A DNA stretch of 51,584 nt, from assembly GCA_000993115.1 (NCBI GenBank), contig LBVN01000018.1, forward strand, positions 1 through 51,584. The letters run 5' to 3'. A model generated the notes under the pieces. The model was given only the letters and a program-made list of their open reading frames with translations, was not told the DNA's origin and did no database searches. A program made the translations under genes and the position numbers. Shown piece by piece: positions 11,888 to 42,058 of the stretch. Source of the stretch: Candidatus Woesebacteria bacterium GW2011_GWB1_38_8b. Its GTDB lineage: Bacteria > Patescibacteriota > Microgenomatia > UBA8517. Every line of letters begins with the position of its first letter. Position 1 is the first letter of the stretch.

Positions 11888-11958
11888 TCACTATTTGCTT
11901 TTTTCAAAAAGATAAGCAGAGCTTGTCATTTTTCGCTTCGCTCAAAAAGATAATAAGC
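11888..11958 (+). repeat. Degenerate duplicate of the 3' end of the 11926 gene, overlapping a REP-like hairpin
   Basis: 11888-11917 (minus strand AYLFEKSK*) resembles 11926-11958 (AYYLFERSEK*); 11928-11950 ATTTTTCGCTTCGCTCAAAAAGA fits YTTCG-N5-CTCAR. Confidence 0.55.
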
Positions 11959-13684
11959 GGGCTCGCCAGAAGGGTAAGCAATTGCTTTAATTAAGTGAAG
12001 ACCTGCCGGTACTTTATTTGGCTCCATTATTAAATTAGTACCGACTTCTCTGTGCACTGCAATATACAGCGTTTTATCATCCAAAATCCTCGGTAGTGCA
12101 TAAAACCCTTCCTTTCCTACTTGACCGAAATAGTATTTGCCGGTGTGTTTAAGTGTTTCAAAACCGGCAATGTATTCGTCCTGCAAACCTTTTTGATAAA
12201 TTTCAGGAGGATACTGGTTCCATGCCAAGAAAAAGATCAGAGGCGGTTCATTGGCGTTTGAAATAATTATTTTGTCGTACTTGTCCTGCACCTCACGCAT
12301 TGCTTCAAATGTTTCTTTAAATCCTGAGTGCCACCACCTCTCACTATACCAGGGGTTATGGACCCAATAATTATGTTGATAAAAGGTAAAATTAATACTC
12401 ATAAGTACAAAAACGGTGAGTGCAAAAATATATTTCCAACGACCCGCTAAAACTTTATAAAAAACAACCAAACCGTACGATATTAAAAATATTAACGGTG
12501 GTAAAATTAAAATCAATCTCGTTGCATGAGTTCCTCCATCCCGTGTTATTGAAGCCGGAATTACTCCTAATAATATCCACAAAGCCATGACTGCAATAAT
12601 TCTTTTATTTTTATGAAGAAAGAAAAACAGACCAATTCCCAATAAAAGCCCGATTGCATCAGCTTTATACAACTGTCCCACTCCTTCAACAGAATGCCTA
12701 AGATTAATATCCCCTTTATTAAAAAGAAAATCAGATGAAAACGGAGCGAACATGTTATCAATTACTTTTTCACCCCAAAAAGTATATTTATTATGAGCCG
12801 CTCTAGCCATAGCTTTTTCAATAATTCCCCCGCCGTATTTTTGAACCATTTTCGCGTCATTAAGCCGCGCAAAACCTACGTCTCCTTCCATAGTCGGATC
12901 TGTAAAAACGCTCAAATAATTGAAACGCTGTGCTCCTCCTCCGAAAATTGTACTGTATGCAATCGGAATACCAAGAATAAGTCCTACAAGACATGTTTTT
13001 AATAAATCTTTTTTAGGTATTCGTATAATTTCTTTTCTGAAAAGAACTAAAAGCACGAGCATAAAGAGAGGCATAAATAATTTTGCGGTGCTATAAATCC
13101 AGGGGGTTAAAACAAAAAACGCAATAGCAATCCAAAGGTATTTACCACTGTCCTTTCGAAGTGACTTAAAAAAGAAATACAAACCGAAAAGTAGAAATGC
13201 CAGAAGCATTGTAACTTCAAATGCAGCCCGACTGTACTGTATATGCCACGGTGAAATTGTCAGCAGGAAAGCAGCAAGTAGTGCCCTGGGGTGATTTTTT
13301 TGATATTCGACTCCGTAACTTAAAATTTCTTTTACAGCCAAATACATCGCCCAAACCCCAAGTACACCAAAGATCATTGCGGGTAAGCGTACGCCAAGAG
13401 GACTTATTCCAAAAATCGCGACTGTGGGGACTTATTCCAAAAATCGCGACTGTGGGGACGGAAGAATATAAATACAAAGGAGTCCTCCACTCTGCAAGTG
13501 AATGAAAATGCATAGGCCAAGAATTTCCCGAATAATCTTTACCTGTTTTTAAAATCGAGTAAGCCTGATACCCAACGTCCAATTCGTCTCCAAAAAGTGA
13601 AACCGGCACTTCATTTATTTTCCAAAAACGAAGAAATGAAGCTAAAAGAAGTATTACTATTAATATTTTTTTGTTTTTATCCAT
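11926..13684 (-). pseudogene. PMT/ArnT-like GT-C glycosyltransferase split by a 28-bp tandem duplication
   Basis: ORF 13217-13684 carries FGDELDVGYQAYSILKTG...VAIFGISP; the frame resumes as LGVRLPAMIFG into ORF 11926-13377; removing one 28-bp copy restores the frame. Confidence 0.9.
13401..13456 (+). repeat. 28-bp perfect tandem duplication
   Basis: GACTTATTCCAAAAATCGCGACTGTGGG at 13401-13428 and 13429-13456. Confidence 0.97.
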
Positions 13685-38103: not shown

Positions 38104-38944
38104 TTTCGGATTTTACCTGAAGCGGATTAAATGCTACATTTTTTCGCTTTAACTCCAAATACTTTTCGTAACCGGTTAATGCCTCGTAAACACCTGCTCT
38201 AAATTCTTTTTTGTCTTTTACCAAACCGAACTTTTCCAAATCCAGAAATTCATAATCCTGGAGTTTATAGCTTTGGAAATTATCTAACTTCGACAATTTT
38301 TGGGGCAATTTAATCTGAAATACTTCAACCCGAACATCTGCAATGTCCAAATACATAAATGGTTTTGGCCGTGTTGGAATTAATGAAAGAGGTAAATTTC
38401 TGTCAATCGCAAGCTCAGTAAATACTTCCTGCTGTAAAATCCTTAAAATCCCATCTTCGCGCTTTTCATTAATTTTTGAAAAACCCATAGGAATAGAAAT
38501 TGAAGAAAATGGTTTTCCGTAATAAGACCTTGGTGTTGAAACATCACGGCCTGTTAATACCATTTTCTGGCTATTAAAAGGCGTAATAATCAATCCCGTC
38601 CCAAGCCTCCTTGTAACCCCTTCCTTGATGTAAGAAAGCACACGGTAAAGAGTAACCGCAGAAGTTATAAAACTGGGTGGCATTTTTTTATAGAGTTTAT
38701 CCAAAGGGATGTCCTCGTGAACCATCTTGGCCAAAAAATTAACAACCTCACTTAATTTACTGTTTGGTCCGGCAGCTTTTATAATTCCCCACTTATCCAA
38801 AATTCTTTGGTATTGGGCGTAAGATATAGGAATGTCGAGATGATGATATCTGAAAACTTCATCTACCGATCCAAGCTTAAGGTATTCGCGAACAAGAAAT
38901 TTATTAAATTCAATCTCATTGTTTACAGGAAATTTTGCTGTCAT
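38072..38944 (-). CDS. Hypothetical protein with a helical N-terminus and a degenerate Nudix box
   Basis: 290-aa ORF; G154-x5-E160-x7-R168-I-L-Q-Q-E173 resembles GX5EX7REUXEE. Confidence 0.6.
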   Translation of the reverse strand: MTAKFPVNNEIEFNKFLVREYLKLGSVDEVFRYHHLDIPISYAQYQRILDKWGIIKAAGPNSKLSEVVNFLAKMVHEDIPLDKLYKKMPPSFITSAVTLYRVLSYIKEGVTRRLGTGLIITPFNSQKMVLTGRDVSTPRSYYGKPFSSISIPMGFSKINEKREDGILRILQQEVFTELAIDRNLPLSLIPTRPKPFMYLDIADVRVEVFQIKLPQKLSKLDNFQSYKLQDYEFLDLEKFGLVKDKKEFRAGVYEALTGYEKYLELKRKNVAFNPLQVKSEINYHFAQEVE

Positions 38945-38974
38945 ATTGTATTATATTATTAATCATTCCCTTTT

Positions 38975-39000
38975 GTCATTCTGAGCAAAGCGAAGAATCT
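38975..39000 (+). repeat. Left REP-like hairpin repeat
   Basis: GTC-ATTCT-GAGCAAAGCGA-AGAAT-CT; stem ATTCT/AGAAT. Confidence 0.85.
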
Positions 39001-39003
39001 ATT

Positions 39004-39288
39004 GTGTATTACGTGTACATACTAACAAACAAGTACAATAATGTCCTATACACGGGTGTTACTAACAATATAGTTCGAAGGGTATATGAACATAAGAAGA
39101 AATACATTAAAGGGTTTACGAGCAAATATAATGTTAATAAATTAATATATTTTGAAATATTTAGCTCCAGTATCGAAGCAATCAGTCGCGAAAAACAGAT
39201 CAAAGGTTGGACAAGAATAAGAAAAATTAACCTAATTTTAAAAAATAATCCCAACTTTGAAGATCTGTATAGTGATTTAATCAAATAA
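39004..39288 (+). CDS. GIY-YIG nuclease family protein (YhbQ-like, single domain)
   Basis: YYVYILTN...LYTGVTNN..RR..EH, FTSKY, AISREKQIK motifs; GTG start inferred at 39004. Confidence 0.92.
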   Translation: MYYVYILTNKYNNVLYTGVTNNIVRRVYEHKKKYIKGFTSKYNVNKLIYFEIFSSSIEAISREKQIKGWTRIRKINLILKNNPNFEDLYSDLIK

Positions 39289-39290
39289 CT

Positions 39291-39316
39291 AGATCCTTCG
39301 TTATACTCAGGATGAC
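39291..39316 (-). repeat. Right REP-like hairpin repeat (inverted)
   Basis: AG-ATCCT-TCGTTATACTC-AGGAT-GAC; stem ATCCT/AGGAT. Confidence 0.85.
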
Positions 39317-40505: not shown

Positions 40506-40778
40506 TTAAGTTGTGGTTTTTGTATTATTTTCAATAAATGCCAAGAGTTCGGTTGAATTACTGGGAACAAACATTCGGTTTCTGAGAATGTGTTCTTTAT
40601 CCGGAGTAGCCACGAGGTCGCCCCTAAGTGTGCATCGTTTATAAAGTGGACAACCCAGCTCCCTGCAGAACCCAGTATCATCTCCAATATGAGAATCACG
40701 ACCATCAAATTGTATTTTTGCATACCCATTATTTTTACGGGCTACTTTTAAAACCTTGCATACCGTATTTTCTATCAT
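40506..40778 (-). CDS. Hypothetical protein (90 aa, four Cys)
   Basis: ATG-started ORF filling the gap, co-oriented; no recognisable family. Confidence 0.45.
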   Translation of the reverse strand: MIENTVCKVLKVARKNNGYAKIQFDGRDSHIGDDTGFCRELGCPLYKRCTLRGDLVATPDKEHILRNRMFVPSNSTELLAFIENNTKTTT

Positions 40779-40798: not shown

Positions 40799-40870
40799 CT
40801 ACTCACACCGAATAGCCTCAATACTTCGACAGGTTCAACATTCCGGCTATTCGTAACGAATTGCCTCAAT
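40799..40870 (+). repeat. 24-bp direct repeats (19/24) duplicating the permease 3' end around a degenerate REP-like core
   Basis: 40799-40822 (IEAIRCE*) vs 40847-40870 (IEAIRYE*); spacer ACTTCGACAGGTTCAACATTCCGG. Confidence 0.75.
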
Positions 40871-42058
40871 TGGGGACAGTTTTGCCGCACGGCGAGCAGG
40901 AAAAACTCCGAAGAAAACTCCGATTGCCGAAGGGACAATAAACGAAACCAGGACGGCAAGTAAATTAACACTTGCCGGAAAAAAAGTCCTGATTGCAAAA
41001 ACTGAGAGCGATGCGAAAAGAAGTCCCAAGATTCCGCCAAAAATTGAAAGCATAAGCGATTCAGTTAAAAACTGTTGTAAAATATCATTTTGAGTGGCAC
41101 CAACTGCACGTCTTATACCGATTTCTTTCGTTCGCTCCGTAACTGTTGCATACATGATGTTCATAATTCCTACTCCTCCAACCAAAAGTGAAATTGATCC
41201 AATTGCAATTAAAACCATATTTATTATTCCGAAAATCTGATTTATAGAATTTAAAAGCTCGGACTGCTCAGTCACCGCAAAATCATCCGCTTTATAACGC
41301 TTCAGCAAAGCTTCCTCGGCTTTTGCTTTTACCGTCGGCAAAATATCATCGGATTTTATTCCAAGATAAATTGCCCAAAATTTCTTGTCGGGATTAATAC
41401 TTGCGTACGTTGTCCGAAACGGAACATATAACGCCCCATCAGCTTGTTGGTCACCTTTTTTCTTTGCTACCCCCACAATCTTAAATCTTTGATCATTTAC
41501 CCGTACTGTTTTCCCCAATGCATCAGACGGATTTCCGTACAATTTTTCAGCCAATGTATATCCAATTACAGATACTTTAGTTGCGGCCTGAATATCTGTT
41601 TTTGTAAACTCCGTACCGTATTCCATCTCAACATTCATCAGCTTAAAAGCATCATCATTTATTCCCATTACATATCCGAACTTTTTATCGCTATCTCCCT
41701 CAATTGAAGCACCTTTCATAACTATCGGTACTATATAATCAATCTCGGAAATACGCTCCAAGGTGTTTAAATCCCTTTCGTCAAAACTGACACCCCCGAC
41801 CGTTCCTTGTCCGCCAAATCCTGCTCCTCCTTCACCTGTAAATCCGCTTCCGGGTAAAATCATAATTAAATTTGCCCCCATGCTATTAAATTGTCCTTCA
41901 ATATAATTTTTTAAGCCTAATCCCAATGCAATAAGTAACACCACCGAGTAAACTCCTATCATAATTCCCAAAGAAGTTAAAATTGTTCTAACTTTGTTTC
42001 TTCGGAAATCGGATAAGGCAGTTTTAACTAAATGAACGTAGCCGTTTTGTATTTTCAT
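40847..42058 (-). CDS. MacB/FtsX-type ABC transporter permease
   Basis: RTILTSLGIMIG, ISLLVGGVGIMNIM..TVTERTKEIGIRRAVGA, PARRAAKLSPIEAIRYE motifs. Confidence 0.95.
   Translation of the reverse strand: MKIQNGYVHLVKTALSDFRRNKVRTILTSLGIMIGVYSVVLLIALGLGLKNYIEGQFNSMGANLIMILPGSGFTGEGGAGFGGQGTVGGVSFDERDLNTLERISEIDYIVPIVMKGASIEGDSDKKFGYVMGINDDAFKLMNVEMEYGTEFTKTDIQAATKVSVIGYTLAEKLYGNPSDALGKTVRVNDQRFKIVGVAKKKGDQQADGALYVPFRTTYASINPDKKFWAIYLGIKSDDILPTVKAKAEEALLKRYKADDFAVTEQSELLNSINQIFGIINMVLIAIGSISLLVGGVGIMNIMYATVTERTKEIGIRRAVGATQNDILQQFLTESLMLSIFGGILGLLFASLSVFAIRTFFPASVNLLAVLVSFIVPSAIGVFFGVFPARRAAKLSPIEAIRYE

Follow-up and report, generated by a model that had tools for sequence, protein, structure and literature searches.

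A permease gene end duplicated around a hairpin-repeat spacer in a Woesebacteria genome and its sporadic recurrence in Microgenomatia

Why should a bacterial gene carry its last codons twice, once in front of its stop codon and once behind it? The window analyzed here, a contig of 51,584 nucleotides in length from Candidatus Woesebacteria bacterium GW2011_GWB1_38_8b (LBVN01000018.1), contains a MacB/FtsX-type ABC transporter permease gene of 403 aa (40847..42058, minus strand; open reading frame list and Pfam, with MacB_PCD at 6.9e-37 and FtsX at 1.4e-18) as the last gene of an operon encoding a periplasmic adaptor, an ATPase and the permease. The translated last seven codons and TAG stop of this gene (copy 1; 40870..40847, minus strand; ATTGAGGCAATTCGTTACGAATAG) read IEAIRYE-stop and are followed by a 24-nt spacer (40846..40823, minus strand; CCGGAATGTTGAACCTGTCGAAGT) and by a second copy behind the stop codon (copy 2; 40822..40799, minus strand; ATTGAGGCTATTCGGTGTGAGTAG) that reads IEAIRCE-stop in the frame of copy 1. 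The copies are identical at 19 of 24 nucleotides, giving a 48-nt period with 79% identity in the repeat search, and copy 2 carries a two-base non-synonymous change from Tyr TAC to Cys TGT relative to copy 1. The plus strand of the spacer contains CTTCG-ACAGG-TTCAA. The first-pass annotation had described this arrangement and interpreted it as a decayed REP core inserted with target duplication, similar to the 3'-end duplications made by integrative elements and to a second locus of the window at 11888.

The description itself was confirmed by pattern controls and by eight assemblies. A degenerate 24-mer pattern matched copy 1 and copy 2 only in the 0.9-Mb genome, while its reversed control gave no match in the same genome, and the spacer was unique both in the genome and in the window, where shuffles predicted no matches. 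The identical permease protein was found on 24 contigs, and eight of them, independently assembled and from the same species, carried exactly identical 72 nucleotides without any length polymorphism. An assembly artefact is therefore excluded, and the 72 nucleotides do not vary within the species. The permease reading frame is full length and reaches the canonical C-terminus of its family before the gap.

The spacer of the window has the form AATGT-TGAACCTGTCGAA-GT+ATT, with a loop of 13 nucleotides and a 3' arm whose last three bases come from the first codon of copy 2. Two hairpins of this family, recognized by sequence and scored with covariance model R1, flank a small GIY-YIG (Ssn-type) nuclease gene located 1.5 kb downstream of the array (38935..39288, plus strand; Pfam GIY-YIG, 4.7e-18). 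They lie at 38976-39000 (plus strand) and 39291-39315 (minus strand) and read GTCATTC-TGAGCAAAGCGAA-GAATC and GTCATCC-TGAGTATAACGAA-GGATC, and about 10 further hairpins in the genome share a common 13-nt loop, TGAGCYTGTCGAA, with stems that vary by place. R1 was built from nine other hairpins of the window's genome (G000) with the array spacers left out. It gave 27.4 and 28.6 bits for the two GIY-YIG-flanking hairpins (both being training copies) and a weak match of 17.2 bits (E 0.06) to the window spacer at 40819-40843 of the minus strand. By contrast, the spacers of arrays found in other genomes reached 20.6-29.1 bits (E 2e-5 to 6e-3), which matches the level of the training copies. For the construct in general these model scores clearly point to membership in the Ssn-associated hairpin family, of which the window's spacer would be a degenerate copy. 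The window unit is the most degenerate but one among the arrays compared, its spacer loop has TGAACC in place of the TGAGCT of other arrays, and it lacks the 5' GTCAT flank present on the canonical hairpins of the window.

The spacer pattern gave one match per array-bearing genome and no second copy in any of them, indicating that the spacer was not copied from a resident master element. The decayed REP core proposed earlier is thus retained as a decayed, low-scoring member of a REP-like hairpin family, but as a single-copy sequence and not as a multi-copy REP. No flanking direct repeats were seen at the other family hairpins of the genome, and a general link between the family and such repeats was dropped for this reason. 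Homologues of the small GIY-YIG nuclease occur in 88 of 139 genomes of the order, including seven of the eight array-bearing ones, so that their presence does not discriminate array-bearing genomes. A search with the Pfam Y1_Tnp profile (PF01797) gave one match of 37 bits, covering profile positions 40-119, to a 230-aa open reading frame on another contig of the genome (G000:C3:33666-33890), and a family hairpin lies 7.5 kb from this frame at C3:41345.

Is the construct peculiar to this species? The same order of gene end, hairpin and gene end at the same permease site was found in at least 18 other lineages, and a comparison table covers 18 arrays with the window's included. The arrays hold two to three gene-end copies, have Microgenomatia (CPR) as hosts, and are spread across many families of the class and no fewer than four permease clades. 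The spacer-pattern search identified arrays in three other genomes of the order, and a relaxed pattern added four more (one with a decayed third copy). Metagenomes contributed about six further distinct array lineages, one of them with three copies, while four other families of the class also carry an array and one more multi-copy array was found besides these. Spacers are 24, 25, 26 or 27 nt long, and once 35 nt, with a copy period of mostly 48-52 nt, and they are 96-100% identical between hosts in which the adjacent coding sequence is only about 64% identical. A real array is present in 8 of the 139 genomes of the order (about 6%) and in 4 of 30 members of an unbiased sample of the largest permease clade, and at least six gains or losses are needed on the permease tree; the distribution among genomes is sporadic. 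An array ancestral to one permease clade was considered and discarded, since the 7 of 8 in the first tree reflected discovery bias and the unbiased sample gave the 4 of 30 above.

Most relatives end in a single-copy, 'empty' permease end. Comparison with relatives thus yielded empty ends and presence/absence polymorphism, as the earlier interpretation had anticipated, but no polymorphism within the species and no larger insert between the copies in any relative examined; 3'-end duplication by an integrative element, which had been offered as the precedent, is not supported for this reason. The window's copy is best described as an old, decaying footprint of the construct that is fixed in the species and without sign of present activity.

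Several neighboring features were recorded in the course of this comparison. One genome (G016:C1, L014) has a single-copy IEALRYE-stop followed by a family hairpin loop, ACTACAGCCCTGAGCGTAGTCGAATGGGGG, without a second copy, for which either loss of the relic or independent insertion of the hairpin may account. In another (G035:C10, L172), four more family hairpins (17-28 bits, two per strand) lie directly downstream of the array at 1610-1751, forming a BIME-like cluster. Two metagenome contigs (L150 and L153) contain CCGGAATTTTGAGTTTTTTACGAAGG followed by ATTGAGGTCGTATCGG without a permease end upstream, which could be fortuitous or could be a spacer-like hairpin from a different setting. Fragments similar to the spacer loop (ACCTTGTCG, GTAGAGCTTGT and AAGCTTGCC) occur 1-25 nt after the last copy in G013 (L026) and likewise in G030 (L155) and G035 (L172), and may, from their sequence, be what is left of an additional spacer that has decayed; in G013, the ATG of the next gene is located where a third copy would start. 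Between the window's array and a GT2/GtrA glycosyltransferase gene lies a 90-aa open reading frame (40506-40778, minus strand) that matched no Pfam or PHROG family and in which a suspected HNH-like motif was not confirmed. The gap between permease and glycosyltransferase is about 50 nt in G012, about 0.76 kb in G015 and about 1.9 kb in G021, and this variation among relatives marks the site as a variable insertion spot.

Folding of units consisting of one copy plus its spacer gave two tandem hairpins in most arrays. In the first, HP1, the upstream-copy codons for E-A-[IL]-R pair with the stop codon and the first spacer bases, with compensatory changes across arrays in the form of GGCTATTCG/CGAATAGCC, GGCTTTAC/GTAAAGCC and GGCATTAC/GTAATGCC, and, in further arrays, GGCCTTA/TAAGGCC, GCGCTA/TAGCGC and GGCTC/GAGCC (the last with TGA as stop codon). 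The second, HP2, is the family hairpin, whose 3' arm is provided by the ATT with which the next copy begins and whose inner stem covaries as AC/GT, CC/GG, TC/GA and GT/GT (wobble); its equivalents in other arrays have stems of 5-6 bp and the same loop. Each upstream copy has a spacer as its pairing partner, while the last copy has none. In the window, HP1 is formed by GGCAATTCG-TTA-CGAATAGCC (40845..40865, minus strand), with 8 of 9 pairs and an A/A mismatch as read from the sequence and with the stop codon inside the 3' arm, and the copy 1 codons CGT TAC GAA TAG plus CC form a near-palindrome with the start of the spacer (inverted repeat I4). An alternative hairpin found only in this genome pairs CGAATAGCC of the stop region perfectly with GGCTATTCG of copy 2 (40809..40853, minus strand; inverted repeat I2) and is the minimum-free-energy fold in the window. 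The predicted mismatch and the alternative best fold both fit a degenerate unit.

A number of simple explanations were examined and rejected. Stop-codon readthrough does not hold because spacers of 24, 25, 26, 27 and 35 nt place copy 2 in all three frames, and in the window an in-frame TGA lies inside the spacer. Collapse of two tandem permease paralogues has no permease, hairpin, permease precursor in the 139 genomes. A small open reading frame over the spacer or copy 2 has no in-frame start codon and none is conserved across arrays, whereas the use of copy 2 as ribosome-binding site and start codon of the downstream gene fits L147 only, arrays with TAC having no ATG. No intrinsic terminator is present at the hairpins of the array, and Rfam gave no meaningful match to a known RNA family.

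How then did the second copy arise, and what has kept it recognizable? Fifteen adjacent copy pairs, found without requiring an intact later copy, were compared codon by codon. Their 75 differing codons comprise 69 synonymous and only 6 non-synonymous ones, compared with a mean of 59 non-synonymous codons in a neutral simulation in which none of 20000 runs was as low as 6. A predominance of synonymous differences like this would be expected had both copies evolved as real gene ends. Among the swaps are TTA/CTG and CGT/AGA, but AGY or TTY never occurs. Later copies appear to have been shaped by selection on the protein, and not to be recent duplicates of the preceding copy. Consistently, adjacent copies of IEALRYE-type arrays (14 pairs) differ at 5.9 of 24 nucleotides and random pairs of single-copy ends at 5.1 of 24, indicating that adjacent copies are not recent duplicates of each other; the smallest difference between copies in any array is 2 nucleotides.

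Codon usage separates the copies further. Upstream copies of IEALRYE-type arrays (n = 14) have GAG at Glu codon 2 in 10 of 14 cases, GAG at Glu codon 7 in 10 of 14 and a CGN codon for Arg in 13 of 14, compared with 7, 5 and 12 of 26 single-copy ends (p = 0.009, 0.002 and 0.005, respectively). By contrast, last copies of the same type (n = 12) have 5 of 12 at each of these three positions and do not differ from single-copy ends, being host-like. The upstream copies use the bases that HP1 pairing needs and are co-adapted with their spacers. Decay follows position as well. Third copies are decayed in G116 (IEVPRYN-stop) and G206, and second copies are decayed where the spacer is poor, as in the window's genome (17 bits, Tyr to Cys) and in G080 (21 bits, Ile to Asn). 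Decay is most advanced in the copies closest to the 3' end, as would be expected of an ageing relic.

These results are most readily accommodated, with about an even chance of being right in our judgment, by a module of about 50 nt, a gene end plus a hairpin, that was placed just 5' of the native gene end and turned the latter into an untranslated relic. The module would consist of its own copy of the last seven codons and stop, synonymously re-coded, followed by a family hairpin of 24-27 nt. Placed directly 5' of the native last eight codons, the module copy would be translated with the protein unchanged, while the native end, now behind a stop codon, would decay slowly as an untranslated relic. 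The module copy would pair with the first spacer bases to form HP1, and the relic's ATT would close HP2. We infer that the module came by horizontal transfer and recombination from an allele that already had an array. Homology would be provided on both sides by the ultra-conserved 24-nt gene end, and the process would be homing-like repair, short-patch recombination or repair synthesis following uptake of DNA. A role of the Ssn nuclease or of the Y1 transposase-like gene in this arrival is speculation.

A pair of genomes from one genus, G030 with an array and G028 without, bears on this placement 5' of the native end. Their permease genes share 93-98% identity across most of the terminal 405 nt, but only 70-80% in the last 120 nt or so adjoining the array (L015/L155 versus L017), a drop that indicates a recombination tract ending at the construct. 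G028 has a 263-aa gene between the permease and a TspO-like gene that is missing in G030. A large array-rich clade was tried as donor of the divergent tract and rejected because the tract is still closest to G028, and no donor/recipient pair closer than genus level was found. Codon usage, the position of decay and this tract together favor displaced native ends over translated sequence. Other results weigh against the arrival of a module: in the five IEAIRYE arrays, including that of the window, last copies have CGN TAC GAA and are module-like instead of host-like, and the relic of G030 is only 83% identical to the gene end of G028, below the expectation for an untouched native end. Furthermore, a spacer identity of 96-100% between distant hosts needs either continuing selection or an unexpectedly wide horizontal spread.

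The alternative that survives best is duplication in place, in which a hairpin element, about 24 nt in size, entered the gene end or the position right behind it and duplicated a 24-nt target, after which the translated copy was quickly re-coded. The copies would have been identical at birth, and selection or palindrome-driven template-switching would have re-coded the upstream one, leaving the untranslated copy native. This is weaker than module arrival and we consider it unlikely, yet it is a serious rival because a duplication of this kind is seen elsewhere in the window. At 11888-11958, a gene for a membrane protein of 483 aa (11926..13377, minus strand) ends in AYYLFERSEK-stop and is followed 8 nt after the stop by AYLFEKSK-stop. 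Near identity between these two copies extends over their first 14-17 nt, and the insert they enclose, 24 nt long and carrying a hairpin (16.7 bits with R1), encodes part of the new tail. Fifteen relatives are unduplicated, with single ends such as AFYLFEKERS-stop or AFYLFSGK-stop, and their resemblance to AYLFEKSK-stop makes the second copy look like the native end. Judged from its sequence, the duplication at 11888 is local and young, which sets it apart from the permease locus, and the near identity of its duplicated target favors duplication in place. The match between the two loci that had been claimed thus extends to a related hairpin footprint with a displaced end, but not to the age and local origin of the duplication.

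Within the arrays, duplication in place would explain why most copy differences fall at HP1 stem positions, with the pairing base in the upstream copy, and why last copies of IEALRYE-type arrays are host-like in their codons. However, the divergence between adjacent copies is that of unrelated gene ends, with a minimum of 2 differences and no array with near-identical copies found, and the third base of the Arg codon, which sits in the HP1 loop and is neutral to pairing, differs between copies in 8 of 11 arrays. In addition, no master copy of the spacer exists elsewhere in the genomes, and the other family hairpins of the genome are without flanking direct repeats. The missing master copy and the Arg third-base differences favor arrival of a module over duplication in place. 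Insertion with target duplication, as originally suggested, is thus preserved in that copy 2 looks like a displaced native end, whereas the target-duplication model is not supported by copies that differ like unrelated ends, by a copy 1 re-coded to pair with the spacer, and by recurrence of the construct at the same site in other lineages.

Selection on the structures themselves is an alternative that we regard as quite improbable. Here, the tandem hairpins would be kept as a functional 3'-end element, which could protect the mRNA, act in termination, or mark a boundary for Ssn-controlled recombination, and copy 2 would be needed only as a 3' arm (ATTGARGC). Compensatory changes in both HP1 and HP2 and the 96-100% conservation of spacers between distant hosts agree with it, as do the differences among relatives in the stretch behind the permease (about 50 nt in G012, the 90-aa open reading frame in the window and about 1.9 kb in G021) and the 263-aa downstream gene that is present in G028 and absent in G030. 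By contrast, it does not account for later copies being intact at the codon level in their remaining 16 nt, and most relatives do without an array. In the window, no terminator-like T tract follows the hairpins and the fold is no more stable than shuffled sequence (z = -0.64).

An even less probable explanation, which we would hold to be very doubtful, is that later copies are directly selected because ribosomes hop over the hairpin gap of about 50 nt, from copy 1 to the matching codon in copy 2 in a frame-independent manner, or decode these copies otherwise. It would account for later copies keeping IEA[IL]RYE-stop with six-fold-degenerate swaps, for a period of mostly 48-52 nt with a hairpin directly after the stop codon, for spacer lengths of 24, 25, 26 and 27 nt that rule out readthrough but permit a hop, and for a spacer far better conserved than neighboring synonymous sites. 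However, the product is identical with or without a hop, leaving no evident benefit, the arrays are sporadic (4 of 30, about 6%) and not clade-conserved, later copies decay in several lineages, and the host-like last-copy codons of IEALRYE-type arrays are explained by displaced native ends without exotic translation. If hopping did occur, a hairpin repeat would have given CPR bacteria a family of natural translational bypass sites.

Finally, chance similarity, or an assembly artefact joining two strain variants in tandem, would suit copies that encode nearly the same peptide with synonymous differences, like allelic variants, but is practically negligible given 72 nucleotides shared by eight independent assemblies, control patterns that match nothing, and the recurrence of this architecture and its conserved spacer across numerous metagenomes and genomes that are unrelated.

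Whichever origin applies, the arrays represent at least 19 natural cases of an Ssn-type hairpin at one conserved target together with a synonymous, structure-adapted copy of the target's last codons. They provide a defined pair of target and element for work on hairpin-repeat mobility and on post-uptake recombination in CPR bacteria. For annotation, they imply that a coding fragment which looks intact but follows a stop codon can be a native gene end that was displaced.

Among known systems, the arrays share with phage T4 gene 60 and the mitochondrial 'byp' elements of Magnusiomyces an untranslated gap of about 50 nt, a stop codon with a hairpin, and matching codons; every codon in copy 1 finds a synonymous counterpart in copy 2, and the spacer hairpin directly follows TAG. 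Matching codons and a stop plus hairpin after the take-off site would also be expected from any duplicated gene end. Bonocora and colleagues are said to have discussed in 2011 the 50-nt bypass of gene 60 together with the mobA cassette, the gap reportedly travelling as part of a small mobile cassette. In gene 60 and 'byp', the reading frame resumes only after the hop, whereas in the permease gene the frame is already closed when the gap starts. Like the spacer, Rickettsia palindromic elements and palindrome-associated derivatives of IS200/IS605 (PATEs) are gene-less hairpins in or at coding sequences of reduced genomes, but they insert in frame and are translated, or lie beside a 4-nt target, and none is known to bring a synonymous copy of the target's C-terminus.

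Closer to the spacer are the REP, BIME and REPIN sequences that RAYT (Y1/HUH) transposases mobilize, small extragenic palindromes just after a stop codon that are sometimes clustered, as in G035, and the window's genome has a Y1_Tnp-like frame, with the 37-bit match to part of the profile. REPs occur in many near-identical copies, whereas the window spacer is single-copy and its family conserves the loop with local stems. To our knowledge, REPs do not carry a replacement copy of a neighboring gene's end.

Ssn proteins are GIY-YIG single-strand DNA nucleases whose genes are flanked by NTS/SRM hairpin repeats, the layout also seen at the GIY-YIG gene of the window, and the spread of these repeats is an open question in the paper describing them (Chenal et al. 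2025, PMC11893778). The spacer resembles these repeats as a short inverted repeat (20-50 nt class) of one family with the two GIY-YIG-flanking hairpins, and in lying at a gene boundary beside a variable region. The published degenerate SRM pattern, HGTCWYN(0-2)YYVSBRHN(0-5)WNVSBRGN(0-2)RNCYNB, searched on both strands, gave by contrast no match in the window (the spacer and the GIY-YIG-flanking hairpins included) or in 18 arrays on either strand; this search pattern would miss the CPR hairpin family seen here. We know of no NTS/SRM repeat described with a flanking duplicated, re-coded gene end.

Such a replacement end is a property of integrative elements and genomic islands, which insert in the 3' end of tRNA or protein genes and carry a replacement 3' end. 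In both cases the incoming DNA would bring a functional gene end and the native end would be displaced as a direct repeat. The known elements place kilobases of DNA with an integrase between the repeats, and no recombinase-bearing element DNA lies between the repeats of the window or of other arrays, where the spacer is 24-35 nt and the whole element about 50 nt. Thus, if a module was indeed placed 5' of the native permease end, it would be the smallest known insertion to bring its own gene end, a strategy of kilobase-sized integrative elements.
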